The notes beneath the pieces were generated by a model. That model ran no database searches, had not been told where the DNA came from, and saw nothing but the letters and a program-made list of their open reading frames with translations. The translations under genes and the position numbers were made by a program. 64,000 nucleotides of DNA. It comes from an uncultured Heliomicrobium sp. GTDB taxonomy: Bacteria > Acidobacteriota > Blastocatellia > RBC074. The DNA lies in the NCBI GenBank assembly GCA_964426025.1, contig CAYRQB010000001.1:1151-65150 (forward strand), written 5' to 3'. Positions 14,870-36,420 of the stretch are shown in pieces. Each line of letters starts with the position of its first letter. Within the stretch, counting starts at the first letter, position 1.

Positions 14870-16087
14870 CTGACCGTAACAAATTGCCTGGTCTTGAATA
14901 GCCTGATGTTTCGGGGCTGCGAACAGTCTTTGGATATACTTGATTATGCGAGCTTGGACTGCCCCGACAGTGAACAAGGGATGCGCGAGATTGTCAACGG
15001 AATCTTTTGTGTAAAGTTGGCATTGTAAGGCCATCAGAATATGGACTCATTTTTTGAAATCAGGGCAATCTGGAGCAAAATCATTTTTCTGCTTAACCGG
15101 TAGCAAATAGGAGGTAGCTCCGGTGCAATCCCATATCCCAAGTCAGGTTTTAATTAGTGGAGCGACCAGAACTGGTCAATATGGCGAAAAATCTATTCAA
15201 TGTTGGCCATCGGACAAATCATCCTACGTACAGCATATGGGAGGACCCTCCTATAAAAATTATCGCTCCCGCCTATAAAAAATAGTCCGTGTCACCGATG
15301 CGCAGCGCTTTCCAAAAAGTTATCTTACACTTGTCCCATTCATTACTGCAGAAGTGTGGAGCTACATTTGGTGATTGAATTAACCAATTTAGCGGCAGTA
15401 AGCGGGGCAGTCTCAATAAGTGCATAACTTCAAAACCGGATTCAGTTGGCAATTGATTAAGCGACAAACGAGCGGAAGTTTTTCTCACATCGCATAGTCA
15501 ATCGAATAGCTGCCAAACTGGTTCAGTTCAGCGAAAATACGCGCCCGATTCTGTGACAATCCAGGCATGAACCGCTAACAGTTGTTGTGGGGGCGTTGGT
15601 TTTACAGGCTTCCGAACTGTGCCGGTAGCGGTTTGGTTTTGGGTAAAGGGAATTCACAAATTTTTTGGGCCGAGTTATTGACTGGAAACTCCGGATGGCG
15701 ATCCGGCGATATTCAGTCGCAAAGAGCACAGATCAAATCCAGGATTTAAGCTACGGCGGATGGTTGGTGACGGCTTGGATAAGTAGCTTGCTTTTTAAAG
15801 CAGATGGATTGTTGACAGCAACAAATATCAGGTTCATTTGCCATGAGCCAATTCTCTCTCGGCTAATTATCCCTATAAACATTACGTCGCCAAAGATTCT
15901 CCATCATTTCCAACAGGCCTAACTGGTTTTTCAGTTCAGGCGGAATGATTGGAAAGTCAATATATCGTTTTGAACAACCAGGATGCTGCCTCGGCATGAG
16001 GTTTCCTTCAAGGTTTCAAGTTTGGGCAAGGTGTGTCTTGACGGAAAACAACAAGCCGAACAAGGCATCCGAAGAGAAATAAAACGT

Positions 16088-17944
16088 ATGGGATCAAATG
16101 CATTAGTTATTGGAGCAGGACCTGCCGGTTTAACCGCCGCCTATGAATTGTCGAAACTCGGTATGGGGTCAACCATCATCGAGGCAGACGCACAGGTCGG
16201 CGGTATTTCGCGAACGGTCAATTACAAAGGCTACAGATTTGATATTGGCGGACACCGCTTTTTCTCGAAGGTTCCGGTCATCAACGAACTGTGGCAGGAA
16301 ATTCTGAGCGAAGATTTTCTGCTGCGGCCTCGGATGTCCAGGATTTATTATCGTGGGCACTATTTCGATTATCCGCTGAAAGCTGCCAACGCTCTGGCCG
16401 GATTGGGGCCGGTGGAAGCTCTGTTGGTGATGATGAGCTACAGCAAGGCCAAGATGATGCCGCACGGAGACGAGAGCAATTTCGAGCAGTGGGTTTCCAA
16501 CCGCTTCGGCCAACGGCTGTACGAAATCTTTTTCAAAACCTACACCGAGAAAGTTTGGGGAATCCCCTGCAGCGAAATTTCGGCGGATTGGGCGGCTCAG
16601 CGCATCAAAAACCTTTCGCTCAAAGAAGCCATTCGCAACGCGCTGTTCAGCGCCGCCAAAACCACCGACGGTGAAGTCATCACGACCCTGATTGATCAAT
16701 TCCATTATCCGCGTCTGGGGCCGGGAATGATGTGGGAATGCTGCGAAGAGATTCTGGCTTCGCAGGGAAATGAAACCGTTCACGGCATCAAGGTTGAAAA
16801 GGTTCGCCACCGAAAGGGAAGAGTCGAGACAGTGGTCGGTCGCAACAAAGACGGCGAGATGGTTGAATTCGACGCCGATCATTTCATCTCTTCTATGCCC
16901 TTGCGAAGTTTGATTCGCAGCCTCGATCCGTTACCGCCGGACGAAGTTCTGCAGGCGGCAAACACTTTGCGGTACCGCGATTACCTGACGGTGGTCTTGA
17001 TCGCCAAACGCGATAACGTTTTCCCGGACAACTGGATTTACATTCATTCTCCCGAAGTGAAGATGGGGCGGATTCAGAATTACAAAAACTGGAGTCCGGA
17101 AATGGTTCCCGACTCTTCGCGCAGTTCGCTGGGGCTGGAATATTTCCTCTGGCAGAAAGACGAAGAATGGGATTGGCCGGACGAACAGTTGATTGATCTG
17201 GGCATCAAGGAAGTGACCAAGATCGGGGTAATCGAACCGAGCGAAATAGAGGACGGAACGGTCGTCAGAATGAAAAAGGCGTATCCGGTTTACGATCAGG
17301 GATACAAAGAGAATCTGGAATTGATCAAAAACTATCTGGCGACGATCACCAACCTGCAAACCGTCGGCAGAAACGGATTGCATCGTTATAACAACCAGGA
17401 TCATTCGATGTTGACTGCGGTTTACGCCGCGCGCAACATCGTCGGCGAACAGAACGATGTCTGGTCGGTGAACACCGAAATGGAGTACCACGAAGAAGTG
17501 AAATCGCCGGGACCGGAACGTTCCAGTACAATCGCAAACACAATGGGCGACAGGGCAGTACCGATGCCGTTGAGAGAATCAGCCGGAACTGATTTCTCCA
17601 CCGACGAGATTATTCAGAAAGCCTTTGCCAAACTCGATCCAATTGCGCTTGGCATATCGCTTGGCGCGGTCGTTGGAACGATAATCTTTCTGGCGACGGC
17701 GGCGCTGATTTTGAAAGGCGGACCGGTAATCGGACCGACTCTTGGTTTGCTGCGTAATTACCTGTTCGGTTACGAAGTGAACTGGCAGGGGGCATTTGTC
17801 GGTTTGGCAGAAGGTGGAATCGGCGGTTTCCTGCTCGGATACGTTGTGGCCAATCTAAGAAACTGGGGAATGAGGGCATATGCCCATTTGATACGGCGAC
17901 GCGCCGAATCAAAGGCCCAGCAACATTTACTGGATGAAGTATGA
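16088..17944 (+). CDS. NAD(P)/FAD-dependent oxidoreductase with a C-terminal membrane domain
   Basis: ATG at 16088; the track ORF starts at 15983. The start gives [21 protein letters not shown], a Rossmann dinucleotide-binding motif. The body resembles the amine-oxidase/UDP-galactopyranose-mutase-like superfamily. The last ~110 aa form a hydrophobic two-helix module ([22 protein letters not shown]...[15 protein letters not shown]). Confidence 0.8.
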
Positions 17945-18270
17945 CGACGACAAATTCAACCATGGCAGAAAAAAATCGGACTACTGAAGAAATAAGCCTG
18001 GAAATCATGAGGATTCAGGCTGGCGTGTTGGCGTTGGTGTGCGCAGTCATCGGCGGAATTGGTTTGTTCGCCATGACAGTCTGGCTGTTGATCAAAGACG
18101 GGCCGGGCGCGGGGCCGCACCTGCAATTGCTCGGTCAATATTTCATCGGCTATTCCGTGACCTGGGGAGGCAGCGTGATCGGTTTGTTTTACGGCGCGCT
18201 GACCGGCGGAATTGTTGGATGGATCATCGGCATGATTTACAACCTGGTTGCCGGACTGCGGCGTGGATAA
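17941..18270 (+). CDS. Small two-TM membrane protein, paralog of the oxidoreductase C-terminal tail
   Basis: Its ATG overlaps the upstream stop (ATGA). [48 protein letters not shown] aligns with [44 protein letters not shown] in the preceding protein. Confidence 0.6.
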
Positions 18271-18321: not shown

Positions 18322-20649
18322 ATGCAATCTGAAATAGTCCGACCGATCAAAGATTCAACTTCGGCGGACAGGGGCAGAACTGTCCGAACTCCTCTTCTAT
18401 ACAGTTTGTTGCGTTTTCTAAGCTGGGCGCTGGCCATCGGTTGTTTTGCGTGGGCGGCCAAAGATTCGCGCTTTCGCGATGTCGAAGGTTTTATTCGCGG
18501 CGAAATCTGTTTGCCGATTTCAGCCGGAATCGCGCTGATCATTCTGGGATATTCGATCACCAAACCGTGGCGAAAGGCCGCCGCGTGGTTGGCGCTGGCT
18601 TTGATCGGGCAGGCGACAGCTTTGCAAATGATTGATGCCGGCCCGACGATGCATTACCAGCATTACCGGCCAATTCAATTTCTTATTCAACATTCGCCCT
18701 GGCTGATTGTTTTGTTCGCAGTTCAAGCGGTTCTGGCGCTGGCCGGGTTGCGAAGCCGATGGAGCAGTGTCAAATCCTGGCTCGCGCGCAACTTCAAATT
18801 CTGGCAACTGGCCGGAATCGGCATTGTCTTTGTTGTCACCAGCGCGACGGTTTCACGCGAAGCCAGGCTTTATCTGGAAGAGCTTCCGTTTGCCGCTTTC
18901 GTTCAATTCGTTTGTCTGATCAATCTGGCGCTGGCGGCAATGGCGATTCAGGACGACGTGCTAACGCGTTGGAAATCCGGGATTGAGCGTTGGATCGGTT
19001 GGGAAGCGGACGAGAGCGAAAGATTCGACCGAATTGTCATCTTTGCCGCAATAGGAGTGACAGCGCTTTGCGCGGTCTTGAGCGCTTTTTCTTATCAGCG
19101 GCATCCGCATCTCGGCGACGAAGTTTCCTATCTTTACCACGCGCGTTATCTGGCGACGGGCGTTTTGACAATGCCTTTGCCGTCGGCGCTCGACGCTTTC
19201 AATCTGGATTTGTTCGATTACGACAATGCGCGATGGTACGCCGCGCCTCCTCAAGGCTGGCCATTGATTTTGGCGATTGGCGTATGGTTCAAAGCTCCGT
19301 GGCTGGTCAATCCGCTGCTGTCTGGTTTGTGCGTTGTGCTGACTTACCTGTTGGCGCGCGAACTTTACGACAGACGAACGGGACGATTGTCGGCTCTGCT
19401 GTTGGCGGTTTCGCCGTGGTATGCGTTTGTCGGCATGAGCTTTATGACTCATACGGCATCGTTGACATTTGCGTTGGCGGCTGCTGTTGCTGTTGTTTGG
19501 GCAAGGAAGACAGGGCGAATCCACTGGGCGTTACTGTCGGGTTTGGCGACCGGAGTGGTTGGAATGATTCGCCCGCTGGAAGGCGCAATCATCGGCGGAT
19601 TGCTCGGATTGTGGATCATCGGCGTCGGCGGCAAACGGTTGAAAGTTCCAGCCATCGCCGCCTGGATTTTCGGATGCCTGATCGTCGGCGGATTCATCTT
19701 TCAATACAACAAGACTCTGACCGGCAGTCCGACCAAATTCCCGATCATGGTTTGGGCTGACAGGTTTATGGGATTGAACAGCAATGCGATGGGATTTGGC
19801 GCTGATCGCGGAGCCGGTTGGGCGTTGGATCCTTTTCCCGGTCACAGTCCGCTTGACGCCATCATCAATTCCAACCTGAACATTACCGTCATCAACACTG
19901 AATTGTTCGGTTGGGGCGTAGGCTCGCTGCTGTTGATGACGATGCTTTTCTTTTCGCTGAAGATGCGCAACAGCGATTACCTGATGCTGGCTTTGATCGC
20001 GGCGATTTTCGTCGCTCATTTCTTTTACTGGTACAGCGGCGGGCCGGATTTCGCTGCGCGGTACTGGTTTATGATGATCGTCCCATTGGTTGTTCTGTCG
20101 GTTCGCGGATTGCAGATTCTGGCCAACAAACTGACTGGCGATGTTGACAGAAAACCGTTGAACAAAACCCGGCTGCTGGTTGTGGCGCTGTCTTTGTGCG
20201 CGATGGCGCTGGTCAATTTCACGCTCTGGCGAGCGATTGACAAATATCATCATTACCTGGGCATGCGTCCTGACGTGATTCGTTTGGCCGAGAAAGAAAA
20301 CTTCGGCAAAAGCCTGATTCTGATTCGCGGCAAACATTCACCCGATTACGCCTCGGCGGCGATTTACAACCCGATTGATCTGCGCGCCGATGCGCCGGTT
20401 TACGCCTGGGACAACAACGCCGGTTTGCGAGCCAAATTGCTAGAACAATATTCCGATCGTCCGGTCTGGATTGTCGAAGGCCCATCGTTGACCGGACATG
20501 GTTTCAAGGTTGCTGAAGGACCGTTGACGGCGCAGACGCTGTTGGAACGCGATCGCAAGTCTGCCGAATCGGGGCATTGGCAACCGACTTACGCCGAAAA
20601 ACTGCCAGCCGATTTTGAACCGGCATATACCAAACCTCGCGCGCAATAA
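18322..20649 (+). CDS. GT-C fold membrane glycosyltransferase (ArnT/PMT-like, GT39/GT83-type)
   Basis: 775 aa with about 12 predicted TM segments. The first extracytoplasmic loop contains HLGDEVSYLYHARY, a DE motif. A large C-terminal soluble domain follows. Confidence 0.7.
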   Translation: MQSEIVRPIKDSTSADRGRTVRTPLLYSLLRFLSWALAIGCFAWAAKDSRFRDVEGFIRGEICLPISAGIALIILGYSITKPWRKAAAWLALALIGQATALQMIDAGPTMHYQHYRPIQFLIQHSPWLIVLFAVQAVLALAGLRSRWSSVKSWLARNFKFWQLAGIGIVFVVTSATVSREARLYLEELPFAAFVQFVCLINLALAAMAIQDDVLTRWKSGIERWIGWEADESERFDRIVIFAAIGVTALCAVLSAFSYQRHPHLGDEVSYLYHARYLATGVLTMPLPSALDAFNLDLFDYDNARWYAAPPQGWPLILAIGVWFKAPWLVNPLLSGLCVVLTYLLARELYDRRTGRLSALLLAVSPWYAFVGMSFMTHTASLTFALAAAVAVVWARKTGRIHWALLSGLATGVVGMIRPLEGAIIGGLLGLWIIGVGGKRLKVPAIAAWIFGCLIVGGFIFQYNKTLTGSPTKFPIMVWADRFMGLNSNAMGFGADRGAGWALDPFPGHSPLDAIINSNLNITVINTELFGWGVGSLLLMTMLFFSLKMRNSDYLMLALIAAIFVAHFFYWYSGGPDFAARYWFMMIVPLVVLSVRGLQILANKLTGDVDRKPLNKTRLLVVALSLCAMALVNFTLWRAIDKYHHYLGMRPDVIRLAEKENFGKSLILIRGKHSPDYASAAIYNPIDLRADAPVYAWDNNAGLRAKLLEQYSDRPVWIVEGPSLTGHGFKVAEGPLTAQTLLERDRKSAESGHWQPTYAEKLPADFEPAYTKPRAQ

Positions 20650-20661
20650 CCGAATCAACAA

Positions 20662-21990
20662 ATGCAATCTGTCTTGAACACATTGATTGGCGATTGGCGT
20701 CTGATGCAATCGGCGGAATCGGCGCGTATTTACAGGCGGATGACGATTGTGTTTACGGCGTTGATCGTCGTCGTCGCTGTGACCGGCAGCCTGGTTCCGG
20801 CGGGCATTGGCTGGGACTTCGCCAACTTTTACGACACCGGTCGTCGGATTGTCGCTTGGCAAATCGCCGACCTTTACAACCCTGACAGCCTGATCAACGG
20901 CGCTGCGCCGCAGGGCGGTCTGGCTTTTTGGGGAACGCCGATTTCGGCCTTGCTTTATGCGCCGCTCGGATTGCTGTCGGCTGAATCCTCGCTGCTTGTG
21001 TTCAAGCTTCAAAACACGCTAGCCCTGTTCGCCGCCTTGTGGTTGCTTTATCTGCACAATCGCAAATTCGCCGAAAATACAAACGCGGCTCAATGGCAAT
21101 ACGCCGCTTTGTTCGCCGGACTGGTTCTGCTTTACCAACCCTTCTGGTCTGTTTACCGCGTAGGCGGGCAAACGACTCCGACAGTGTTTTTGCTGTTGGT
21201 CGCAGCGATGATAGGACACGTTCGCAAGCGGTTCTGGGTTTCATCGGCTTGCGTGGTCGCGGCCATTCTGATCAAACCGGCCTTTGTGTTCGTGCTGCTT
21301 CCTCTGGTCGTAACTTCTGGCTGGCGGTATTTGCGAAACACTGCGGTCATTCTTGCCGGTGTCGGATTGGTTTCGTTGTTGATTCTGGGCTGGCAGGTTC
21401 ACGCGCAGTTTTTGCAGATGATGTCGCAGGGACTGAAAAACGCCTACCCGTGGTTTTACAACAGTTCGTTGTACGTCACGGCGGAGAATCTGAAGCTGCT
21501 GGCTTCGCCGCCGGTTGATGCGCGGTTGGTCGGCGTTTCTGTGTTGTTGGTCAAACTGCTGATGGTGACTTTGTGCGCTTATCTGATCTGGCAAGGGCGC
21601 AAACAGAAAATGACCGCAGCGGCTGGGAGGCATTTTGAGTTTCTGATGGCCGTCGTTTTCTGCCTGCTGGTTTCGCAGACGGTTTGGGAACATTACCTGT
21701 CAGTGCTTTTCCTGCTGCTGGCGTACGTCGTCGCTGCTCACAGGCATTTCAGCCTGGGCGCGCTTTCGTTGATCGCTGCCATCTTCATACTTTCCATCGG
21801 ACAAAATCTGATTCTCGTCAATCTTCTGCGCTCGATTCACAATTTCGATTCGGCGTTCGAACTGGTTTCAATCGGACTGTTCAAAAGCGCTCCGTTGTTG
21901 CTGACGGCGATTTTTTTATGGCTATGCCGACGAGAGTTTTTCAACAGTCATCTGGCCGCTGTCTGGGCGCAAACAGCGAAAGAGAAGTAA
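20662..21990 (+). CDS. Polytopic membrane protein, DUF2029/GT87-like putative glycosyltransferase
   Basis: 442 aa and multi-TM. The first loop carries GWDFANFYDTGRR. There is no soluble domain. Confidence 0.45.
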   Translation: MQSVLNTLIGDWRLMQSAESARIYRRMTIVFTALIVVVAVTGSLVPAGIGWDFANFYDTGRRIVAWQIADLYNPDSLINGAAPQGGLAFWGTPISALLYAPLGLLSAESSLLVFKLQNTLALFAALWLLYLHNRKFAENTNAAQWQYAALFAGLVLLYQPFWSVYRVGGQTTPTVFLLLVAAMIGHVRKRFWVSSACVVAAILIKPAFVFVLLPLVVTSGWRYLRNTAVILAGVGLVSLLILGWQVHAQFLQMMSQGLKNAYPWFYNSSLYVTAENLKLLASPPVDARLVGVSVLLVKLLMVTLCAYLIWQGRKQKMTAAAGRHFEFLMAVVFCLLVSQTVWEHYLSVLFLLLAYVVAAHRHFSLGALSLIAAIFILSIGQNLILVNLLRSIHNFDSAFELVSIGLFKSAPLLLTAIFLWLCRREFFNSHLAAVWAQTAKEK

Positions 21991-21993
21991 GCC

Positions 21994-24132
21994 ATGGCAT
22001 TTTCCGAACCTTTGTTGTCAATGTTGAATGTGTCTGGTCAGTCAGACGCTTCGCTACCAGATGATAGTCGAAGGTCTGTCGTCAAAGTCGTGCTGTTTTC
22101 CGGCGGCAGAGGATCAAGAGTGCTTTCACGACGATTGATCAACCACCCGCAGGTCAAACTGACTCTGGCCGTCAACGGTTATGACGACGGAGCTTCAACA
22201 GGCGAAGTCAGACGCTTTCTGGGCGACAGCCTTGGGCCGTCGGATTTTCGCAAGAACGCTTCGCGCATGGCCACTGAACTGCAACGCTGCCAACCGGAGT
22301 TGATCGAATTGCTTGATCTGCGATTGCCGGTCGGATGTACTGATGATGAAGGTCTGACGACTTTGCGATTGCTTTCAGATAAACAAGCCGCGCCGTCAAC
22401 CGATTGGCAAGCGGAGCTTCTGACCAAACAGGAAAAGCTGAACGAAGCCGCGCGGTCAGGGCTGGCGCGCAAACTGAAAAGTTTCGAGCGGGAATTGATC
22501 GAAAGCGGAAATTCATTTTCCTTCCACGATTGCAGTCTTGGGAACATAGTTTTCGCCGGATGTTTTTTGGAAGTCGGAAGGGATTTCAACTCGACCATCG
22601 CCGATTACTGCGCGCTGTTGAATCTGCCGGAAGACCTGATTGAAAACGTGACCACCGGAGAAAACGCCTGTCTGGTGGCGTTGAATCGCGAACACAGGTT
22701 GTTGACCACCGAAGCCGAAATTGTCAGCAGCAAACGGCGAAATCACATCAAGGACATTTACCTGTTCGATCGCATTCCGACGGCGGAAGAGGAAAAATGG
22801 CTGGCGACGGCGACGATTCAACAGATTGACAAGTTCATCGAGCAGCGATCAATCACACCGGCGATGAATCCGCGATTGCAGGCGAAAATCGCCGAAGCCG
22901 ATTTGATCATTTACGCGCCGGGGACTCAGCATTCCAGTTTGTTTCCGTCCTACCTGACCGCCGGTCTTGGCGAAACCATCGCGCAGAATCTGACGGCGAT
23001 TAAATTGCTGATCACCAATTTGCAGGAAGACGCTGAGATTCCAGACAGCAGCGCCGTGGACATCATTGATCGCGCGGTTTATTACCTGAAAGACCGCAAC
23101 ACGCGTTCGCTGCCGACGCCGTGTCTGATCACGCATTATTTGTTGAACGACCGCGAGCAGGGAACGGACGAAAAGCCCTACGTGCCATTGGGCCGGCTGG
23201 AAACTCTGGAAGACCCGCGCCTGGTCAGAATCGCCAATTACGAAGAGGGAAGCACTGGCTGTCACGATGCGTCGAAGGTTCTTTTGCCGTTCATCGAAAC
23301 CGCGCTGCGAACCGGAGAACGTCAAAGCATCGCCGTCTGGTTGTTGGACGGACAGACGCAGAACAAGATAACGCAGACGATTCTGGAAGCGCTGAGAGGC
23401 GGACTTGGGCGATTGCCTTTTTCAATCACTGTCTTTTATTGCAACGACGAATCGTTGCCTTACAGCTTCACCGGTTCGTTGCCGTTTGCCGTTCGCAACG
23501 TCGCCGTCAAAGGCGAATCCGAAACCGACGCCTTCCGCCGAACCCTGACCGATGAAAATTTCGATTACGTGATCCTGTTCGATTCTTCCGGGATGTATCA
23601 GGGCGAAGACATCGTCAACATCGCTTCGCTGCTGACCAACAGGCGATTGGACGCCGTGTGGGGAAGCCGCCGGTTGTCCGTCAAAGACATCCGCGAATCT
23701 TACAAACTGCGTTACCGGCACAATGTCGTGCTCGGCGCAATCAGTTATCTGGGCAGTCATTTGCTCAGCCTGGCATATCTGCTTCGTTACGGGCGTTATC
23801 TGTCGGACACGCTGTCGGCGGCCAGAGCGATCAGAGCATCTTATTTGCAAACCGGGCGATTAGATTTGAAGCATCCCAGTTTCAATCAACAATTGCTGTC
23901 GTTTCTGTTGGCCAATCGAGCCGAGCTGATTGAAACGCCAGTCAAATTCTTTCCGCTTTCGCCCGAAAAAGTTCGCAGAACTTCAATCCGCGAAGGCTTG
24001 CAATCTTTGGTTCTGGCCTTCATCGGAAAACCGAAAGCTATGCGCGAAAAGCCTGGCGCAACCGAATCCGGATATGTCCTGACGGAGCAATCGCCCAAAG
24101 GCGCGGCTTCGCCCGGATCAATACTGAAATGA
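21994..24132 (+). CDS. Fusion protein: N-terminal CofD/YvcK-like (UPF0052) domain, C-terminal GT2-like domain
   Basis: N-terminal motifs are VVLFSGGRGSRVL...AVNGYDDGASTGEVRR and ADLIIYAPGTQHSSLFPSYLTAGLGETI, matching the CofD/YvcK signatures GGGTG, DDGGSSG and ADLIV.GPGSLYTSI. The C-terminal 270 aa contain GT2-like motifs: VILFDSSG, DAVWGSRRLS and SDTLSAARAIR. Confidence 0.65.
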   Translation: MAFSEPLLSMLNVSGQSDASLPDDSRRSVVKVVLFSGGRGSRVLSRRLINHPQVKLTLAVNGYDDGASTGEVRRFLGDSLGPSDFRKNASRMATELQRCQPELIELLDLRLPVGCTDDEGLTTLRLLSDKQAAPSTDWQAELLTKQEKLNEAARSGLARKLKSFERELIESGNSFSFHDCSLGNIVFAGCFLEVGRDFNSTIADYCALLNLPEDLIENVTTGENACLVALNREHRLLTTEAEIVSSKRRNHIKDIYLFDRIPTAEEEKWLATATIQQIDKFIEQRSITPAMNPRLQAKIAEADLIIYAPGTQHSSLFPSYLTAGLGETIAQNLTAIKLLITNLQEDAEIPDSSAVDIIDRAVYYLKDRNTRSLPTPCLITHYLLNDREQGTDEKPYVPLGRLETLEDPRLVRIANYEEGSTGCHDASKVLLPFIETALRTGERQSIAVWLLDGQTQNKITQTILEALRGGLGRLPFSITVFYCNDESLPYSFTGSLPFAVRNVAVKGESETDAFRRTLTDENFDYVILFDSSGMYQGEDIVNIASLLTNRRLDAVWGSRRLSVKDIRESYKLRYRHNVVLGAISYLGSHLLSLAYLLRYGRYLSDTLSAARAIRASYLQTGRLDLKHPSFNQQLLSFLLANRAELIETPVKFFPLSPEKVRRTSIREGLQSLVLAFIGKPKAMREKPGATESGYVLTEQSPKGAASPGSILK

Positions 24133-24779
24133 TCAACGATTTCGATTTGCTGATTTTCGATATGGACGGAGTGCTGGTTGATACGACCAATTGTCATCAA
24201 CGAGCCTTCGCCAGATTGTGGCAGAAATTGGGAGTGGATGGTCCGGCTTACGATGAAATCGCCGGGCGCAAAACGAAAGATGTAGTTTCAGAATTCACTT
24301 TGCATTTGAATCCGACCGAAGCGCAGATCAACGAATGGGTCGTTTTCAAACAAAGACTGGCTCGCGAATGTCTGGCCATCGAAGAGATAGCTTTTGACGA
24401 CAGCGCGGAATCCATCAGCCAGTTGAGCGGCCATCAAATCAGATTGGCTTTGGGAACCGGAGCTTCGCGCGAAACCACTGCTTCAGTGTTGAACCGGCAA
24501 GGTTGGGGAGAGTCGTTTTCCGTCATCGTCACCGGCGAAGATGTGAATGCGGGAAAGCCCGAACCGGAAATTTATCTGGCTGCGATGGAAAGAGCCGGAG
24601 TCGAACCCGACAGAACATTGATCATTGAAGACAGTCAGGCTGGGCTGGCTTCGGCGATTGCATCCGGCGCTTACGCGGCGGTGGTCAGGACGGGCAGAAA
24701 GTCAGAATCAAAACGGTTCGTCGGCAGCTTTCCCGATTTGAAATCCTTATTTACTACTTTGGGGGTGAACGGAGCATGA
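24129..24779 (+). CDS. HAD-IA family hydrolase, beta-phosphoglucomutase-like phosphatase
   Basis: LLIFDMDGVLVDT is HAD motif I with the nucleophilic Asp. GTGASRE and GKPEPEIY are also present. Confidence 0.85.
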   Translation: MINDFDLLIFDMDGVLVDTTNCHQRAFARLWQKLGVDGPAYDEIAGRKTKDVVSEFTLHLNPTEAQINEWVVFKQRLARECLAIEEIAFDDSAESISQLSGHQIRLALGTGASRETTASVLNRQGWGESFSVIVTGEDVNAGKPEPEIYLAAMERAGVEPDRTLIIEDSQAGLASAIASGAYAAVVRTGRKSESKRFVGSFPDLKSLFTTLGVNGA

Positions 24780-25564
24780 GTCGGTTGATGATTATTCCGG
24801 CGGCGGGTTTGGGGTCGCGATTGCAATCGGAAATACCGAAGGTTTTATTTCCGGTCAACGGACGACCGATGATTGATTACCTGTTCGATCTTTATGCGCC
24901 GTTGATTGATCACTTTGTTCTGGTGATTCATCCGTTCGCAGCAGTCGCTTTGGAAAGCCATTGCTCGCGTCTGAGATTGCCGATTGAGTTCGAGATTCAA
25001 TTAGCGCCAACGGGAATGCTGGACGCGATCATGATTTCGCAGGAAGTCGTCCGCCATCATCAACCTGATCAAGTCTGGATCACCTGGTGCGATCAAATAG
25101 CGGTTCGTCGTCAAACCATCGAGCGGTTGGCTGAAACCGCGACTGCGCGAAAAGACGCTGCGGTCGTCATGCCTACGATCATCAAACCGGAGCCTTATAT
25201 TCATTGGGTCAGAAACGAACGCGGGGAAATAGTTGATTTGCTGCAACGTCGCGAAGCAGACGACATGCCTGTGAGCGGAGAAGGCGACATTGGTTTGTTC
25301 AGTTTGTCGCGACGCGCTTATCTGGAATTGTTGCCGCGCTTCGCCGCCGAAGCAGGCATCGGCAGCGCGACTCAGGAAAGAAATTTCCTGCCGTTCATTC
25401 CCTGGTTGGCGAAACAGAAGGACGGCGAAACGGCGGTTTGCACTTTTCCGGCGCTGGATGAAATCGAATCCGTCGGCATCAACACCAAAGACGATCTGGC
25501 ATTGATCGAAAAATATTTGAGCAATGAACACACGCAAGCTTTCAGTCATCATTCCAGCTTATAA
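24776..25564 (+). CDS. IspD/TarI-like nucleotidyltransferase (probable cytidylyltransferase)
   Basis: IIPAAGLGSRLQSEIPKVLFPVNGRPMIDYL matches the PAAGxGxRM...PKQ(Y/F)L...G.P(I/L)L motif of the IspD/TarI family. It is coupled to the upstream gene by a 4-nt overlap. Confidence 0.65.
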   Translation: MSRLMIIPAAGLGSRLQSEIPKVLFPVNGRPMIDYLFDLYAPLIDHFVLVIHPFAAVALESHCSRLRLPIEFEIQLAPTGMLDAIMISQEVVRHHQPDQVWITWCDQIAVRRQTIERLAETATARKDAAVVMPTIIKPEPYIHWVRNERGEIVDLLQRREADDMPVSGEGDIGLFSLSRRAYLELLPRFAAEAGIGSATQERNFLPFIPWLAKQKDGETAVCTFPALDEIESVGINTKDDLALIEKYLSNEHTQAFSHHSSL

Positions 25565-26255
25565 CGAGGAACAGTTCATTGGCCGTTTGCTGGAAAAAGT
25601 TCTGGCCGTTGATTTGTCGCGCTTCAATCTGGAGAAGGAAGTCATTGTCGTTGACGACCGTTCAAGCGATCGCACGGCGGAAATCGCCGGTCAATTTTCC
25701 GAAGTCATTTTGCGAACTCACGAAGTGAACCAGGGCAAGGGCGGAGCAGTCAGAACCGGACTGGCTTTGGCCACAGGAGATTTCGTCATCATTCAGGACG
25801 CCGATCTGGAATACGATCCGAACGATTATGTGCAGATGTTTTTGGCTCTGTTTGAAAACGGCACGGGCGCTGTTTACGGCAGCCGATATATGAAACATCC
25901 GAACGGCGGAGTTTTCATCAACCTGCTGACCGGAAAACATCCAGGACAATCCTGGCCCGCATATCTGGGCGGACAAAGCCTTAGCTTCGCTTCGCTGATT
26001 TGCACCGGACGTTATCTGACAGACACCGTGACTGCGTTGAAGCTTTTCAAACAGGAAGTCATCAAACCGTTGGAGCTTCAGACGAGCGGCTTTGAACTGG
26101 ATCACGAAATTTCAGCCAAAGTCCTGGCCAAAGGTTACAAGATAAGAGAAGTGCCGATCAGCTATTTCCCTCGCAGCAAAGAGGAGGGGAAGAAGATCGG
26201 TTTGAAAGATTGGTTTATCGCTTTGAGAACGTTTTACCGTTTCCGCAGAGGTTGA
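25524..26255 (+). CDS. Glycosyltransferase family 2, DPM1-like
   Basis: GT2 core motifs are LSVIIPAYNEE, VIVVDDRSSDRT and IIQDADLEYDP (the DxD). Confidence 0.85.
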   Translation: MNTRKLSVIIPAYNEEQFIGRLLEKVLAVDLSRFNLEKEVIVVDDRSSDRTAEIAGQFSEVILRTHEVNQGKGGAVRTGLALATGDFVIIQDADLEYDPNDYVQMFLALFENGTGAVYGSRYMKHPNGGVFINLLTGKHPGQSWPAYLGGQSLSFASLICTGRYLTDTVTALKLFKQEVIKPLELQTSGFELDHEISAKVLAKGYKIREVPISYFPRSKEEGKKIGLKDWFIALRTFYRFRRG

Positions 26256-26376: not shown

Positions 26377-27486
26377 GTGTGTGATTACGAAAAAGTAAAA
26401 ACAACCTGCGCCCCGCCGGAATCCACGCCCACACTTTCCGTCGTCATTCCCGTCTTCAATTCCAATGAGTTTTTGAAGAAATGTCTGGCGGCGCTGGCCG
26501 AATCGGATTTCGACGATTACGACGTGTTGGTGGTGGATGACGGTTCGACCGAAGCCGTGGAGCCGATTGTCAGGCAGCACGGTTACGAATACATGCGGAT
26601 TGAAGGTCCGGGCGGCCCGGCCAGAGCGCGCAATCGCGGGGTCGCTCGCGTCAAAGGCAAGTATCTGGTTTTCATTGACGCGGATGTTTGCGTTCATTCA
26701 GACACGCTTCGGCGCTTTGCCGAAGTCTTCGCCGCAGATTCGTCCATTGACGCCGTCGTCGGTTGTTATGACGAAACGCCCGCCGATCCGAGTTTCTTCT
26801 CGCAATACAAAAACCTTTTCCATCATTATGTTCACCACAGCAATGGCGGGTTGGTCAGCACTTTCTGGAGCGGATGCGGGGCGATGCGTCGCGATCTGTT
26901 TCTGGCTTTCGGCGGATTCGATGAAGAGCGTTACCGTCGTCCGGCCATCGAAGACATAGAGCTGGGAACGTGGGTCACAGCCGCCGGTTTTCAAATTGTG
27001 CTGGCTCCGCAGGTCAAGGCAACGCATCTGAAGAAATGGACGCTGTGGAGCATTCTGAAAACCGACATCTTCGACAGAGGCGTGCCGTGGATTCGGTTGA
27101 TGCTGCGCGCCGGAGCCGTTGCCAATACGCTGAACGCGAAACCGACTCAGCGATTCTGTGTGGCAATGGTTTGCCTGAGCAGTCTGTTGATGCCGTTGGC
27201 AATCTGGTGGCCGGTGACCGGAGTTATGGCTCTGGTTATGCTTTCAATCGTGACCGCCTTGAACATGGATTTTTATCGTTACTTTGCCGATCATTCCGGC
27301 ATCTGGTTCGCCGTTCGCGTCGTGCCTTTGCACTGGCTTTATTTCTGGTACTGCGGGTTCTGCGTTGTTTGGGGAACGATGCTGCATCATCTGGACGGTT
27401 CGTCGCGAAATCAACCATCGCCCTCGGAAAAGTTGGGTTCCGGCCTTTCCGCCAACAACGAGCGACAACCGACGACTTATAAATAA
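26377..27486 (+). CDS. Glycosyltransferase family 2 with a C-terminal multi-TM region
   Basis: GTG start. Motifs are LSVVIPVFNS, VLVVDDGSTE, FIDADV and GGFDEE. The C-terminal 120 aa are hydrophobic. Confidence 0.85.
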   Translation: MCDYEKVKTTCAPPESTPTLSVVIPVFNSNEFLKKCLAALAESDFDDYDVLVVDDGSTEAVEPIVRQHGYEYMRIEGPGGPARARNRGVARVKGKYLVFIDADVCVHSDTLRRFAEVFAADSSIDAVVGCYDETPADPSFFSQYKNLFHHYVHHSNGGLVSTFWSGCGAMRRDLFLAFGGFDEERYRRPAIEDIELGTWVTAAGFQIVLAPQVKATHLKKWTLWSILKTDIFDRGVPWIRLMLRAGAVANTLNAKPTQRFCVAMVCLSSLLMPLAIWWPVTGVMALVMLSIVTALNMDFYRYFADHSGIWFAVRVVPLHWLYFWYCGFCVVWGTMLHHLDGSSRNQPSPSEKLGSGLSANNERQPTTYK

Positions 27487-29467: not shown

Positions 29468-30463
29468 TTGAATCACCAGGCAAAAAACGACATCGCGATT
29501 TCCATTTTGATCACAGTGATCAGCGGCAAAGAAACCATGCGCCGATGCCTGAAAGCCTTGCAGCCGCAGGTTCAATCGCTGGTTGCTGAGATCATCGTTC
29601 CGTACGACGAATGGTCAAACGAGATTGGCGATTTGAAAACCGAATTTCCGGCAGTGAATTTTCCCTTTGTCGCCGATTTGGGAATCGCCGCCGATCCGAA
29701 CGTCCCCGCGCATCAACACAGACTTTGCGACCGTCGCCGTGCGATCGGTTTGCAGATGGCGCGCGGACGGGTCATTGCCATGACCGAAGATCAGGTTATT
29801 CCGGCAACGGATTGGGTCGAACAGATTCTGGCGGCTCACGACCGATTGCCCGACGCGGTGATTGGCGGTTCGATTGACAACGTGGTTGATCATCCGTTGC
29901 ATTGGGCCGCGTATTACTGCGATCACGGGCGATACGGCAGTCCGTTGGCGGCAACCGAAGCCGAATACGTTTCCGACCTCAACATCTCCTACAAACGCGA
30001 AGCGATGGAAATCACCCGCGATGTCTGGGGCGAAGCTTACAGCGAAACGAAAGTGCATTGGGCTTTGCGAGAGCGCGGCATGAAATTGCGGCTTGATCCG
30101 ACGCTGAAAGTTTACAAACACCGACCGGAGTTTGATTACTGGCACGCCGTCCGCGAGCGCGCCGAATGGGGCAGAGTTTTTGCCGAAACCAGAACGGTCA
30201 GCGCGGGATTGAAACAGAGGATTTTATTCGCCGCGATGACGCCGCTTTTGCCCGCATTGCTGCTGATGCGCAATTGCAAACACATGCTCAGGCAGAATCG
30301 AACGGCAGTGCAGATGATTTTGGCTCTGCCATTGATCGCGGGGTTTTTGATCGCCTGGTCGTGGGGCGAACTGCTTGGCTACGTTTTCGGCGAACCGCAT
30401 GCCGGTGAGCCAAAAGCTGTGACAAGCGAACTGGCGAATTCAAGAATCTCGAATACCGATTGA
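29468..30463 (+). CDS. GT2-like protein, tandem paralog 3 (EDQ)
   Basis: Probable TTG start. Motifs are IAISILITVISG, RVIAMTEDQVIPATDW and HWAAYYCDHGRYGSPL. Confidence 0.65.
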   Translation: MNHQAKNDIAISILITVISGKETMRRCLKALQPQVQSLVAEIIVPYDEWSNEIGDLKTEFPAVNFPFVADLGIAADPNVPAHQHRLCDRRRAIGLQMARGRVIAMTEDQVIPATDWVEQILAAHDRLPDAVIGGSIDNVVDHPLHWAAYYCDHGRYGSPLAATEAEYVSDLNISYKREAMEITRDVWGEAYSETKVHWALRERGMKLRLDPTLKVYKHRPEFDYWHAVRERAEWGRVFAETRTVSAGLKQRILFAAMTPLLPALLLMRNCKHMLRQNRTAVQMILALPLIAGFLIAWSWGELLGYVFGEPHAGEPKAVTSELANSRISNTD

Positions 30464-31218
30464 AGATGTTTACGATTCTTACTTATCACTCGATTGACGA
30501 CAGCGGTTCGGTGGTTTCCGTCGCGCCGCAAACTTTCGCCGATCAGATGGCTTGTTTGTCGGAAATCGGTTATCGCGGAATTTCAATGCGCGAAGCCGTC
30601 GCTCATTTCAAATCGCAAGGCCGCTGGCCGGAAAAATGCGCCGCGCTGACTTTCGATGACGGCTTCGCCAACTTTTACGACGACGCGACACCTGTGCTGG
30701 CTCGGCACAATTTTTCGGCGACGGTGTTCGTCATCAGCGGTCATATGGATGGTCGCAACGATTGGGCCGAACCGCCCGCCGGTTTGGGTTGGCGCGACAT
30801 GCTGTCGTGGAAACAGGTGCGAGAGTTGTCGGCGTTGGGAATTGAGATTGGCGCGCACACTCGCACGCATCCCGATTTGCGCGCTTTGTCATCCAGCCAA
30901 CTCGAAGAAGAGATCGCCGGTTCATGCGTCGAAATCAGCGATTACACCGGCCAGCAGGTTGAAAGTTTCGCCTACCCATTCGGTTACCTGGACAATTCGG
31001 CGGAAGATGCAGTGGCGCGAGCGGTTCGTTCGGCCTGCACTACAGAATTGCGCAGAGCGAACGACGACCCGCTTCATTTGCTGCCTCGTGTTGATATGTA
31101 TTACCTGCAATCGCCGCGTCAGTTGCAATTGCTGGTCAAAGGAAAACTTGACGGTTATCTAACCATCAGGCGTTGGGGCCGAGCCGTCAAACAAACACTG
31201 ACCGAACGCAGACATTAA
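30460..31218 (+). CDS. Polysaccharide deacetylase (CE4, NodB-homology domain)
   Basis: ALTFDDGFANFYD carries the DD metal-binding motif. ATVFVISGH and IEIGAHTRTHPDL carry the His motifs. Confidence 0.85.
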   Translation: MKMFTILTYHSIDDSGSVVSVAPQTFADQMACLSEIGYRGISMREAVAHFKSQGRWPEKCAALTFDDGFANFYDDATPVLARHNFSATVFVISGHMDGRNDWAEPPAGLGWRDMLSWKQVRELSALGIEIGAHTRTHPDLRALSSSQLEEEIAGSCVEISDYTGQQVESFAYPFGYLDNSAEDAVARAVRSACTTELRRANDDPLHLLPRVDMYYLQSPRQLQLLVKGKLDGYLTIRRWGRAVKQTLTERRH

Positions 31219-31363
31219 GCCGGAAAGCGGACAATAGCCGGAACACGGAAATAGCCGGAACGCGGACGTTCCCGTCCGCAAACTGGTTGGCGGACTTCCA
31301 GTCCGCCCTTCACGCTGGAGTAGATTTCTCAATTACAACATACACGCGGACAGAATGTCCGCG
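31219..31363. promoter_or_regulatory. Three tandem 17-bp direct repeats followed by three GCGGAC..GTCCGC hairpins
   Basis: The direct repeats are gccggaaagcggacaat, agccggaacacggaaat and agccggaacgcggacgtt, spanning 31219..31270. The hairpins are GCGGACgttcccGTCCGC at 31262..31279, GGCGGACTtccAGTCCGCC at 31289..31307 and CGCGGACAgaaTGTCCGCG at 31345..31363. Confidence 0.6.
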
Positions 31364-31378
31364 TTCCAAGGAATGACC

Positions 31379-32533
31379 ATGCAGCTATTAAACCGAGTCG
31401 CAAAACACGCGCGTTTGAACTGGCAGAATCTGGCCATACCGGACGTGACCAGCCCGCCTTTCGTGATCCTGTTCATCAATTCGATCTGCAATATGAAATG
31501 CGAACATTGCTTTTACTGGTCGAGTCTGAACAAACGCGACGACCTGAGCTTTGAAGAAATCGTGGCTTTGTCCAAAGAACTGGGGCCGATTGAAAACCTG
31601 AATCTTTCAGGCGGCGAGCCTTTTTTGCGAAAAGAGTTCGGCGCGATCTGTCGCCAGTTCATTCAGCAAAACGGCGTCAAGGAAATTTACGTTCCCAGCA
31701 ACGGCTGGTACACGGACAAAACCATCGCGCAGATTCGTGAAACGCTGAAGGAAAAAAGCCTGAAGATTTTCGCTATCGAACTTTCGCTTGACGGCATGCA
31801 GGAATTCCATGACCGGTTCCGCGTCGCTCCTGGCGCTTTTGAACATGCGATGAAAACTTACGACGCATTGGTTGAATTGCAACGCGAAGATTCACGGTTG
31901 CAGATTCATTCAATTTCAACCGCAACTGCCGAAAACATGGACGAGATTCGGCGGCTGACGACTTACCTGTACGAGCGTTGTCCGCAAATGTCGCATCACA
32001 ATCTGGCGCTGATTCGCGGCGACCGCAAAAATCCTTCGTTGCAGGGACCGAAGCTGGCCGAATACCAGAGGCTTTACGAATACGTCAAACGTTTGTGGGC
32101 GCCGCGCGAAGAAAGCCGTTACGGCAGCATAGTCGAACCGATGCTGCAATGGGCGAAAGTCAAAACCGCCGAAGAGCAACGGCAAGTCATCCCTTGCCGC
32201 GCAGGAGTGTTGAGCGTGGTCATCAACGCCAACGGCGACGTTGGGCTTTGTGAACAGCACAAACCAATCGGCAATCTGCGGCAGAAATCATTCAACGAAA
32301 TCTGGCATTCTGAAGAAACGCGTCGGCTTAGAGCTTCGATCAGCGCGAAAGAATGTTATTGCACCAACGAAATTTTCCTGTGGCCGAGCATCACTTTCCA
32401 ACCGGTTCAATTGGCCAAAGCCATGATCGGCGCAAAGGTCTGGCGGAAGGCTGAGCCTTTGCCCGTTGGCGAACGCGCGGATTACAACGCGAGCGGAAAA
32501 ATGGAATTGCCGATTTTGCCGATGAAGCAGTGA
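31379..32533 (+). CDS. Radical SAM enzyme with a reduced SPASM/twitch-type C-terminal domain
   Basis: CNMKCEHC is a Cx3Cx2C motif. GGEP is present. The C-terminal Cys residues are CRAG, LCEQH and ECYC only. The start is taken at the ATG at 31379, which has an AAGGAA 6 nt upstream; the track start at 31355 lies inside a hairpin. Confidence 0.8.
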
Positions 32534-32541
32534 ATTTACCT

Positions 32542-32559
32542 GCGGACAAGGATGTCCGC
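32542..32559. promoter_or_regulatory. GCGGACAaggaTGTCCGC hairpin/palindrome 13 nt upstream of the Wzx start
   Basis: It shares the same half-sites, and a following (C/T)TCCAAG, with the hairpin at 31345..31363. Confidence 0.55.
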
Positions 32560-32571
32560 GCTCCAAGATAG

Positions 32572-33843
32572 ATGTTGTTCAAAAATTTCCTATCACTGGC
32601 CGGAGCCGAAATCGCCGCGAAGGCGTTGACCTTTGCGGCGTTCGCTTATCTGGCGCGAGTGGCCGGGCCGGACGGATTCGGTTACATCGAATTCGCGGCG
32701 GCTGTGGTGATGTGTGCCGGTCTGGTCGTCGAACAAGGCTTCAATCCATTCGGCGCGCGCGAAATCGCCAAATCGCCCGAACGGACGAACGCGCTGGTTT
32801 CGGAAATTTTTCTGGTTCGATTGGTTCTGGCAATCTGTTTGTATGTTGGCGTGGTCGTCTTCTCTCTGAGCTTCGATCGTTCGCCGCTGCTGACGCGCTT
32901 GTTGTTGGTTTACGGTTTGAGTCTGTTGGCGATGCCCTTGCTATTGCAATGGGTCTTTCAGGGTCACGACCGAATGCAAGTTGTCGCGGCGATTCAAATC
33001 ATACGGCAGATGGTTTTTGCGGCGATGGTCTTTGGATTCGTTCGCGAAGCTTCGCAAATCTGGATGGTCGGATTGGCGGAAACCGCCGGATTGATCGGCG
33101 CAGCGGCTTTCGGCGTCTGGATGTATCGTTGTCAATTGAACGGCAGAATTCATCTGCGGTTAAGCGTTTCATCCCGGTTGGTTCGCGAAGGCGCGACCAT
33201 CGGATTGAGCCAGATTTTCTGGGTCGTCAAAATGTCCGGCGCGACGTTGATTATGGGTTTGATGGCGACGGCTGAAGACGTAGGTTACTTCGGCGGAGCG
33301 ATGCGGATTCTGATGGCGCTTCACACCTTCGTCTGGCTTTACTTCTTCAATATGCTGCCGACGATGTCCAGGTCCTGGGCGGCTGCGGACGGTTCGTTTG
33401 CCGCACTGATAGCGCGTTCGATGCGATTGATTGTGGCGCTGTCGTTTGTCGGAGCGATCATCTGGGTGATGGCGTCTCCGTTGGTTGTCAGAATTGCTTA
33501 CGGCCAGGCTTTTGCTCCGGCGGGCGTGGCGTTGCAATGGTTCGCGGGCGTTTGCGCTGTGGCGGCCATCAGCGGTCATTACCGTTTCGGTTTGATCGCC
33601 GCCGGACATCAGACCGCAGAAATGCTGACGGCATTGATCGGCGCGATTGCCGCTGTGATTCTGGTTCCGGCTGGTTATTTCGCCTCTGGCGTTGGCGGAG
33701 CGGCGGCGGGATTGTTCATCGGCGAAGTTCTGATCTGGCTCAGCGCGTGGTGGTTCGGGCGAAGGAAATTGCACTTGGGTTCGCGCCGCTTCGACAGCGC
33801 GGCGGTCGGAAGCGCGGCTTATCAGGGTGAGGTCACACAGTGA
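32572..33843 (+). CDS. wzx: Wzx-type oligosaccharide flippase (polysaccharide biosynthesis protein, MOP superfamily)
   Basis: 423 aa with about 12 TM segments. Composition and length are typical of the PST-family Wzx. Confidence 0.75.
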   Translation: MLFKNFLSLAGAEIAAKALTFAAFAYLARVAGPDGFGYIEFAAAVVMCAGLVVEQGFNPFGAREIAKSPERTNALVSEIFLVRLVLAICLYVGVVVFSLSFDRSPLLTRLLLVYGLSLLAMPLLLQWVFQGHDRMQVVAAIQIIRQMVFAAMVFGFVREASQIWMVGLAETAGLIGAAAFGVWMYRCQLNGRIHLRLSVSSRLVREGATIGLSQIFWVVKMSGATLIMGLMATAEDVGYFGGAMRILMALHTFVWLYFFNMLPTMSRSWAAADGSFAALIARSMRLIVALSFVGAIIWVMASPLVVRIAYGQAFAPAGVALQWFAGVCAVAAISGHYRFGLIAAGHQTAEMLTALIGAIAAVILVPAGYFASGVGGAAAGLFIGEVLIWLSAWWFGRRKLHLGSRRFDSAAVGSAAYQGEVTQ

Positions 33844-35435: not shown

Positions 35436-35451
35436 AAGTTCCCGGTAATGC

Positions 35452-36416: not shown

Positions 36417-36420
<4 letters not shown>
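35452..36420 (+). CDS. UbiA-family prenyl-phosphate phosphoribosyltransferase-like (DPPR-synthase-like)
   Basis: IINDVADAEADRAHPEKRLRPIASG is the NDxxDxxxD Mg-binding motif. Multi-TM. Similarity is to decaprenyl-phosphate phosphoribosyltransferase. Confidence 0.8.

Follow-up and report, generated by a model that had tools for sequence, protein, structure and literature searches.

Why would a flavoenzyme of soluble fold end in a membrane module, and why would the gene immediately behind it encode a second copy of that module as a free protein? The question is raised by a locus in a stretch of 64,000 nucleotides (here, the window) on contig CAYRQB010000001.1 of assembly GCA_964426025.1, labeled as an uncultured Heliomicrobium species and placed by its lineage in the Blastocatellia of the Acidobacteriota. 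The enzyme gene lies at 16088..17944 on the plus strand, stop codon included; its open reading frame (ORF) and its NCBIfam and Pfam matches point to a flavoenzyme of 618 amino acids (aa), which resembles UDP-galactopyranose mutase (UGM) and carries the membrane module at its C terminus. The full ORF spans 15983..17944 (+), and the ATG at 16088 is taken as the start on the basis of homologs and of a database protein of 618 aa with 100% identity (P0275). The mini-gene that follows on the same strand, at 17941..18270, encodes a protein of 109 aa and was recognized from its ORF, its homologous clusters, and a match to the NCBIfam model NF037947. As read from the sequence, the junction runs ...GAA GTA TGA overlapping ATG ACG..., the stop of one gene and the start of the next sharing the 4 bases ATGA (17941..17944). 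The layout is as a preliminary description of the window had given it. In what follows, the membrane module at the end of the enzyme is called T and the mini-protein M.

The close likeness of tail and mini-protein, the core of that description, would mean little if it reflected generic hydrophobic composition alone. BLASTP with composition adjustment, comparing the last 144 aa of the enzyme with the mini-ORF, returns an E value of 2e-13; enzyme residues 505-592 align without a gap to mini-protein residues 14-101, with 28 of 88 positions identical (32%) and 50% positives. The Smith-Waterman score of the two is 135, compared to 34.3 +/- 6.6 for 2000 full shuffles (z = 15.2) and 41.2 +/- 9.0, with a maximum of 93, for shuffles confined to blocks, that is, within each transmembrane (TM) segment or loop (z = 10.4). 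Hydrophobic composition does not account for the similarity, and these sequence comparisons identify the tail and the mini-ORF as true paralogs. Their best-conserved shared part is the 26-residue loop between the two helices, K-(D/G)-G-P-x-x-G-x-x-L-x-L-L-x-x-Y-x-x-G-(Y/F)-x-V-(T/S)-W-x-G; both window copies have this family motif, preceded by TM1 and followed by a glycine-rich TM2.

The same plan is recovered by hydropathy and AlphaFold for each copy, namely, TM1, a short helix in the loop, the glycine-rich TM2, and a short basic end, bearing out the two-helix, glycine-rich membrane hairpin that had been proposed. TM1 is strongly hydrophobic in both (Kyte-Doolittle maximum, 2.4-2.5). The T module (residues 505-618; 17600..17941, +), delimited by BLASTP, alignments, hydropathy, AlphaFold, and a weak NF037947 match, consists of an amphipathic pre-helix, TM1 at 518-542, a loop with a short helix at 543-565, TM2 at 566-592, and a basic helix at 593-618, whereas M comprises TM1 at ~27-50, the conserved loop at 51-76, and the glycine-rich TM2 at 77-101. 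The amphipathic helix before TM1 and the basic C-terminal helix of ~25 residues are thus extras of T. AlphaFold models the full-length enzyme with moderate confidence (predicted local distance difference test [pLDDT], 71.8) and places helices in the tail at 505-512, 518-542, 550-557, and 566-617. Between the catalytic domain and T lies a poorly conserved linker (approximately residues 463-504; 17474..17599, +), which is modeled with low confidence (pLDDT of 31-40 over residues 463-513) and varies in length and sequence among family alignments. Since the catalytic domain must be cytoplasmic, each hairpin would have both ends inside (N-in/C-in) and its conserved loop outside, a predicted topology that agrees with the basic C termini. 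A natural protein made of two modules in tandem is modeled with a pLDDT of 80.8 and a predicted template modeling score (pTM) of 0.62, and it repeats the order of TM1, loop helix, and TM2 twice; a Foldseek search of the PDB with this tandem-pair model found nothing below E = 1. M has one invariant histidine and T none, and neither module carries a paired His/Cys or other cofactor-binding motif.

How widely have the two copies been kept together? Homologs of the mini-protein fall into 639 clusters, with identities of 62-92% across phyla, and a scan of one genome per species with the mini-protein found relatives in 186 genomes, of which the best 80 loci were analyzed. These come from Acidobacteriota (Blastocatellia and Pyrinomonadaceae), many Nitrospira/Nitrospirales, Binatia, "Deltaproteobacteria," Calditrichota, and Rhodothermales, and separate look-ups add Chloroflexota (Limnocylindrales) and Phycisphaerae; the loci are mostly from metagenome-assembled genomes, and some taxon labels ("Heliomicrobium," "Enterobacteriaceae") are doubtful. 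An intact tail-bearing enzyme of ~600-680 aa lies directly upstream of the mini-gene in 67 loci, with an approximate spacing of about -17 to +60 bases in 65 of the 67, and the remaining fetched loci are contig ends or frameshifted long-read assemblies. These pairing statistics derive mainly from loci fetched with the mini-protein; in two independent checks that started from the enzyme (L095, from Phycisphaerae, and L096, from a metagenome), a mini-protein homolog 58-65% identical to ours is again encoded directly downstream. The tail, used as a word-indexed search query, returned five short C-terminal fragments only.

The two copies form clean classes. Mean identity is 0.55 among T modules, 0.59 among M modules, and 0.31 between the classes; the nearest neighbor of each of the 136 sequences lies in its own class, and all of 200 bootstrap replicates separate T from M. 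We also considered recent gene conversion between the two and ruled it out, as the T-M distance within loci equals the overall T-M distance. Together these data point to a single old, family-wide duplication rather than a local event. Given the clean classes and distances, the duplication would predate the spread of the cassette, each copy having since been under its own purifying selection. In two loci (L082, 4161-5615; L076, 1207-2046), a second, tail-less paralog of the same NCBIfam type as the window enzyme (PRK07208) is encoded just upstream of the tail-bearing enzyme, 27-28% identical to the window enzyme.

Does the module occur in other settings, and in what company? A profile search with the alignment of the mini-protein collects 915 representatives at E <= 1e-3, of which 333 reach E <= 1e-10, and their architectures are varied. 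Besides the window type, with T on the enzyme and M apart, there are enzymes with two modules fused to the N terminus (P0230); in a locus of this type (L090), the enzyme gene is preceded by one for a free single module and followed by genes for a deacetylase and a family 2 glycosyltransferase (GT2). Elsewhere, free tandem pairs of ~200-227 aa stand beside tail-less enzymes of 484-494 aa; gene order is single module, tandem pair, enzyme, and GT2 in L091 and enzyme, deacetylase, GT2, small ORF, and tandem pair on the contig of P0143. In a fourth architecture, the two modules are fused to the GT2 itself (P0175), and in a fifth, three modules occur alone (P0130) or fused to a Wzy_C O-antigen-ligase-like domain (P0126). 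Tandem-pair proteins (~130-230 aa) make up about 18-20 of the best 150 representatives. Class-specific hidden Markov models place modules that occur free and singly in the T class, together with the first of the three in P0130; the free ones retain the T-specific cytoplasmic helices. Both halves of tandem pairs are assigned mostly to the M class. The association with a PRK07208-type enzyme is found in every examined context long enough to show neighbors.

These natural fusions are the strongest available evidence, at the level of sequence, that the modules act together and belong functionally with the enzyme and the GT2. As for the homo- or hetero-oligomeric anchor suggested earlier, it is the hetero-oligomer that can reasonably be inferred from tandem and triple fusions to the enzyme family or its glycosyltransferase. 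Neither the two window modules, even at E <= 10, nor the tandem pairs have a Pfam match, and we found no published description of this module family, or of a UGM-type enzyme with a membrane module, in a searchable literature that is itself incomplete. By sequence, the T and M modules appear to constitute an undescribed family of small membrane modules.

What kind of enzyme carries T? It had been described as an FAD/NAD(P) oxidoreductase, a label that is right in naming a flavoenzyme and too generic otherwise, since in both sequence and fold the protein is closest to UGM of the eukaryotic type. It is a clear member of NCBIfam NF005548 (PRK07208.1-4; 724.5 bits, E = 5e-218, cutoff of 389 bits), its residues 4-475 lying on model positions 5-475 of 488. 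That model ends with the catalytic domain, the linker and T module being extra, and carries no assigned function ("hypothetical protein" or "NAD(P)/FAD-dependent oxidoreductase"); no paper in the searched, incomplete library mentions the family. Source databases label its members "NAD(P)/FAD-dependent oxidoreductase" or "protoporphyrinogen oxidase," and Pfam assigns only the generic Amino_oxidase and NAD_binding_8 domains (the latter with 52.6 bits against a cutoff of 21.9). Assignment of the catalytic domain (residues 1-460; 16088..17467, +) as UGM-like is based on phmmer against the PDB, Foldseek, and invariant residues. Against all PDB sequences, phmmer finds the UGMs of Aspergillus fumigatus (AfUGM) and Trypanosoma cruzi (TcUGM) at an E value of about 1e-22, the latter match spanning residues 12-456, compared to 4e-5 for protoporphyrinogen oxidase. 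Foldseek with the predicted model finds 3ukh at E = 1.3e-24 and 4dsg (TcUGM) with a TM-score of 0.81.

Most of the UGM active-site residues that were compared are found as well. The FAD-binding GxGxxG motif (VIGAGPAGL, residues 7-15) is invariant in family alignments, and the segment DIGGHRFFS aligns with DVGGHVIFS of AfUGM, its G54, G55, and H56 being invariant. In the known enzymes this histidine loop, G-G-H (TcUGM G61-H62, AfUGM G62-H63), lies beside the flavin (PMC4192007, PMC3624792). The functional residues listed for TcUGM are G61/H62, N201, Y317, N433, the catalytic or diphosphate-binding arginines R176, R327, and R423, and the diphosphate-binding tyrosines Y395 and Y429 (PMC4192007). 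Mapped to the window enzyme through the alignment with AfUGM, G61/H62 corresponds to G55/H56, R176 to R172 (AfUGM R182), Y317 to Y318, R327 to R328 (AfUGM R327), R423 to R428 (AfUGM R447), Y429 to Y434 (AfUGM Y453), and N433 to N436 (AfUGM N457). All of these mapped residues are invariant in 25-34 family members, including the 37%-identical variant with N-terminal modules, and so are W316 and Y399; Y434 and N436 sit within a C-terminal R-Y-x-N-Q-D-H-S motif.

Several observations weigh against this assignment. The protoporphyrinogen oxidase of Myxococcus xanthus is nearly as good a fold match (TM-score of 0.75, E = 3e-24), and the two dedicated UGM models score below their cutoffs, Pfam GLF (PF03275) with 17.9 bits against 26.3 and TIGR00031 with 29.3 bits against 303.75; both were presumably built mainly on bacterial-type UGMs. 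The equivalent of TcUGM Y395 is left unaligned by phmmer, with Y399, in the motif A-Y-P, only a candidate, and a search of the PDB for it with the C-terminal segment of the enzyme gave only noise. In addition, among the residues that contact the sugar or uridine, AfUGM Q107 and N163 are replaced by K98 and T153, and the region of AfUGM N207 (TcUGM N201) aligns with an insertion and has no conserved asparagine. Because of these last differences, the sugar substrate may not be UDP-galactose. The only moderate confidence of the full-length model also counts against a firm assignment. Overall, judging from sequence and the structural model, the enzyme is most likely a UGM-like, non-redox mutase that interconverts the pyranose and furanose forms of a nucleotide sugar, possibly one other than galactose.

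A third gene belongs to this set. Neighbors were counted in 49 large related loci, each of at least 15 kb, and 44 of them encode on the same strand, mostly adjacently, a homolog of the membrane GT2 found in the window at 26377..27486 (+; 369 aa, Glycos_transf_2/Glyco_transf_21-like with C-terminal TM helices, by Pfam and locus counts). Its gene immediately precedes that of the enzyme in about 25 loci and immediately follows the mini-gene in about 10, and the GT2 is not of the classical polyprenyl-phosphate-sugar synthase type. This GT2 is the conserved third member of the cassette. The preliminary description had instead supposed that the module may tether the oxidoreductase to the GT-C enzymes that follow in the window, a proposal that the comparison does not sustain: the two GT-C genes after the mini-gene have homologs in only 8 and 7 of the 49 loci. 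They are part of a clade-specific inserted block of ~8 kb between the mini-gene and the GT2 gene (18322..26255, +), recognized by Pfam, NCBIfam, and locus comparison, which encodes a GT-C (775 aa), a GT87, a CofD-like/GT2 fusion, a HAD phosphatase, a nucleotidyltransferase resembling the N-terminal part of GlmU, and a small GT2 resembling dolichyl-phosphate hexose transferases. The genes of this block have homologs in only 5-12 of the 49 loci, and L095 and L096 have an uninterrupted operon without it.

How might two paralogous hairpins serve such an enzyme? To one reading we give an even chance, namely, that T and M make up a hetero-oligomeric membrane platform that holds the mutase beside the GT2, where the furanose donor is consumed at once. 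The flavoenzyme would convert the nucleotide sugar from the pyranose to the furanose ring form, its cytoplasmic catalytic domain being joined to the T hairpin by a flexible linker of ~40-50 residues, and the translationally coupled mini-gene would supply the second hairpin, M. T and M would assemble in the inner membrane, each N-in/C-in, as a four-helix or larger hetero-oligomer and so keep the mutase at the cytoplasmic face of the membrane, next to the membrane GT2. The thermodynamically disfavored furanose donor could then pass straight to the GT2, which would start a surface-glycan or glycolipid pathway of Wzx type. Coupling a mutase to a GT2 makes sense because the UGM equilibrium disfavors the furanose product (PMC3624792). 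Three observations count against this platform. The most conserved part of the module is the loop predicted to face the periplasm, and simple docking on the cytoplasmic side leaves its conservation unexplained; the pair in P0175 is fused to a GT2 that already has TM helices of its own, so it is not needed merely as an anchor; and some systems have three modules, not two.

The outward-facing conserved loop, together with the fusion of the pair to a GT2 that has TM helices of its own (P0175), keeps alive an alternative that we regard as unlikely, in which T and M serve as a small translocator, their bundle of at least four helices moving the lipid-linked (furanosyl) product of the GT2, or another intermediate, across the inner membrane. 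The modules would then be a functional analog of GtrA or ArnE/ArnF, and fusion to the enzyme or GT2 would merely keep the steps together. Conservation is indeed strongest in that loop and in the glycine-rich TM2, not in the cytoplasmic parts, and the modules come in pairs or triples. The minimal cassette of GT2, enzyme, and modules has no other obvious flippase, LPG_synthase_TM being present in only 9 of the 49 large loci, and the consistent remote relation of the modules to a family named "holin" is one to small, oligomerizing membrane proteins. Such a role fits poorly, however, with the lack of sequence or fold similarity to known flippases (none in Pfam; none below E = 1 with Foldseek), with the Wzx-type flippase that the window operon and L096 already encode, and with a GT2 that is not a classical polyprenyl-phosphate-sugar synthase; two to three hairpins with few polar residues in the membrane would also make a weak substrate path. 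A wider proposal, which we rate equally unlikely, is that the T/M hairpins are a new holin-related family recruited to glycan biosynthesis as an obligatory subunit, be it a furanosyl-lipid translocator or a mutase-activating or gating subunit that feeds the GT2. If this is true, Nitrospira, Acidobacteriota, and other environmental phyla would possess a "furanose metabolon" at the membrane that has so far gone unrecognized.

Other explanations do away with the mutase, the partnership, or the biosynthetic role altogether. The catalytic domain could be a redox enzyme that oxidizes or desaturates a lipid or a lipid-linked compound in the manner of protoporphyrinogen oxidase, phytoene desaturase, or HpnE, and the modules would let it reach this compound or an electron carrier in the membrane, such as quinone, that keeps or resets the redox state of the flavin. 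Amino_oxidase as the sole Pfam domain named above its cutoff there, the near tie in fold with the M. xanthus enzyme, and the database names all speak for this, and bacterial UGMs need a still-unknown FAD-reducing system (PMC3624792), making a membrane redox link conceivable even for a mutase. We nevertheless consider the redox enzyme and its module role, taken jointly, improbable: similarity in sequence favors UGM over protoporphyrinogen oxidase by 17 orders of magnitude, the UGM-specific histidine loop, the three arginines, and the sugar-diphosphate tyrosine are all invariant, the modules lack a paired His/Cys or other cofactor-binding motif, and the gene context is glycan synthesis throughout. 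Quite improbable is a tail that serves as a passive anchor beside a mini-protein with a separate, unrelated role, their similarity reflecting common descent without physical partnership. Many flavoenzymes of the amine-oxidase, protoporphyrinogen oxidase, and CrtI folds do work at membranes, and the hydrophobic TM1 of each module would suit an anchor. Against it, conservation of the mini-protein is comparable to that of the tail, to which it is always adjacent, often with overlapping genes, across phyla; natural tandem and triple fusions exist, and free pairs accompany tail-less enzymes; and near-invariance of a 26-residue loop motif is not expected of a passive anchor. We give hardly any credence to the idea that the modules derive from prophages and act as holins or similar pore formers. 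It is raised by NF037947, whose full 75 positions are matched by both window copies, by 18 of 18 proteins with a tandem pair, and by 10 of 10 with a single module (best E value, 1.7e-18), and by the predicted topology, which is that of class II holins with their two TM helices and N-in/C-in arrangement. The window copies fall far short of the model's 70-bit cutoff (tail residues 516-592, 28.1 bits; mini-protein residues 28-101, 28.9 bits), as do ten single-module relatives, with 23-46 bits. A tblastn search of 50,697 phage genomes with three family members gave no match at E <= 1, PHROGs gave no match for the modules, and no BFVD fold scored below E = 1. Phage genes are absent from the surroundings, all neighbors being genes of glycan synthesis, and the modules are covalently fused to biosynthetic enzymes. 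A lytic holin function, with no support from phage genomes, PHROGs, or BFVD folds, was rejected; from the sequence matches, a remote common origin of the modules and NF037947 ("holin_4") is likely.

What lies around the cassette in the window? Upstream, an invariant element of 23 nucleotides (nt), GCTGCCTCGGCATGAGGTTTCCT, is found at 15985..16007 (+), ~80-100 nt before the start codon of the enzyme gene, by blastn and alignment of 10 Blastocatellia loci. This core, GCTGCCTCGGCA(A/T)GAGGTTTCCT across the alignment, lies within the intergenic region 14691-16087, and the rest of the gap of 1.0-1.4 kb between the divergent genes is not conserved in the 10 loci. The core holds a small invariant hairpin, CCUC-GGCAA-GAGG, for which no covariation is seen across the aligned Blastocatellia loci; the leader region matches no Rfam family, and promoter and terminator scans of it gave nothing above shuffle expectation. 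The element could be an operator, a promoter element, or a motif of the 5' untranslated region. That the enzyme gene opens its operon, as had been proposed, is plausible in the clade of the window, where a divergent gene lies upstream across a gap of ~1.4 kb, and does not hold generally, the GT2 gene preceding the enzyme gene in about 25 loci.

Farther downstream, the rest of an extended operon shared with L096 occupies 30460..38168 (+; by Pfam and the same order in L096 and L095) and encodes a polysaccharide deacetylase, a radical SAM/SPASM protein, a Wzx-type flippase, a protein of 531 aa, a UbiA prenyltransferase, and a PMT_2-type GT-C. In L096 and L095 the order is enzyme with T, M, GT2s, deacetylase, radical SAM/SPASM, Wzx, a 543-aa protein without assigned function, and PMT_2, the UbiA prenyltransferase being present in the window only. 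A polysaccharide deacetylase of family PF01522, often followed by a radical SAM/SPASM protein, recurs near the UGM-like enzyme and GT2 (window 30460-32533, L095, L096, L090, and the P0143 contig), and its homologs occur in only about 12 of the 49 large loci; from these sequences, its recurrence hints at an N-acetylated sugar that loses its acetyl group and undergoes further modification. No Pfam or NCBIfam model matches the 531-aa protein (33840-35435), which contains several hydrophobic segments and whose gene falls between those for the Wzx flippase and the PMT_2 GT-C. The 543-aa protein, which takes the same place in the L096 operon, shares 48% identity with the 531-aa protein; the latter may be a Wzy-like polymerase or ligase. 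It is noteworthy beside P0126, in which three T/M-type modules are fused to Wzy_C. The UbiA gene overlaps the start of the PMT_2 GT-C gene (35452-38168), and the HAD phosphatase is encoded earlier in the operon (24129-24779). UbiA, phosphatase, and GT-C together recall the mycobacterial decaprenyl-phospho-ribose/arabinose route, with its UbiA-type phosphoribosyltransferase, phosphatase, and GT-C arabinosyltransferases. Within the inserted block, a 712-aa protein (21994-24132) joins an N-terminal CofD/"GAK system CofD-like" domain to a GT2-like C-terminal region with a weak AglJ-like match, a fusion that is, to our knowledge, unusual.

Furanose sugars come from soluble mutases with an equilibrium far toward the pyranose. 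How cells pull such a reaction forward, and how bacterial UGMs keep their flavin reduced, are poorly understood. A mutase-like enzyme that a dedicated, paralogous module pair links to the membrane, beside a GT2, suggests a physical solution, substrate channeling at the membrane, and the present result gives a testable function to a family annotated only as "oxidoreductase," "protoporphyrinogen oxidase," or "hypothetical." For annotation, a module family with ~900 cluster representatives, at least five architectures, and no Pfam entry should be useful in its own right. The cassette is common in Nitrospira, which are key nitrifiers, and in soil Acidobacteriota, whose cell envelope glycans are, as far as we know, almost unstudied.

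How does this system compare with those already known? The eukaryotic-type UGMs of A. fumigatus (3UTE/3UKH) and T. cruzi (4DSG) have the same fold as the window enzyme, with ~21-23% identity across the catalytic domain, and share with it the GxGxxG motif, the G-G-H loop, three catalytic or diphosphate-binding arginines, a diphosphate tyrosine, and the R-Y-x-N-Q-D-H-S motif. To these the window enzyme adds the linker, the two-TM module, and the paralogous partner gene, whereas all UGMs known to us are soluble and have no membrane segment. The proteins of NF037947 (holin_4) are likewise small, with two TM helices, but differ from the window modules in that the latter have a glycan context and are fused to enzymes. 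In the Arn pathway, the paralogous arnE and arnF genes are neighbors in an operon that also encodes a GT2, a deacetylase-family enzyme (PF01522), and a PMT_2-type GT-C, and all three of these families are present in the window operon. The ArnE/ArnF heterodimer and GtrA are, like T and M, small membrane proteins of lipid-linked sugar pathways; they have no detectable homology to the modules and have four TM helices per chain instead of two. Closest in logic are the bacterial systems in which Glf (UGM) is coupled to galactofuranosyltransferases: in mycobacteria and other bacteria, the glf gene adjoins that of a GT2-family galactofuranosyltransferase, and there, too, a mutase is paired with a GT2 that consumes the furanose donor. 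Those systems employ a soluble bacterial-type UGM without a membrane module, whereas the window encodes a eukaryote-like mutase that appears to be tied to the membrane by a dedicated module pair. We rate the cassette as a furanose-mutase/glycosyltransferase pathway of a known sort, equipped with a new, dedicated pair of paralogous membrane modules.

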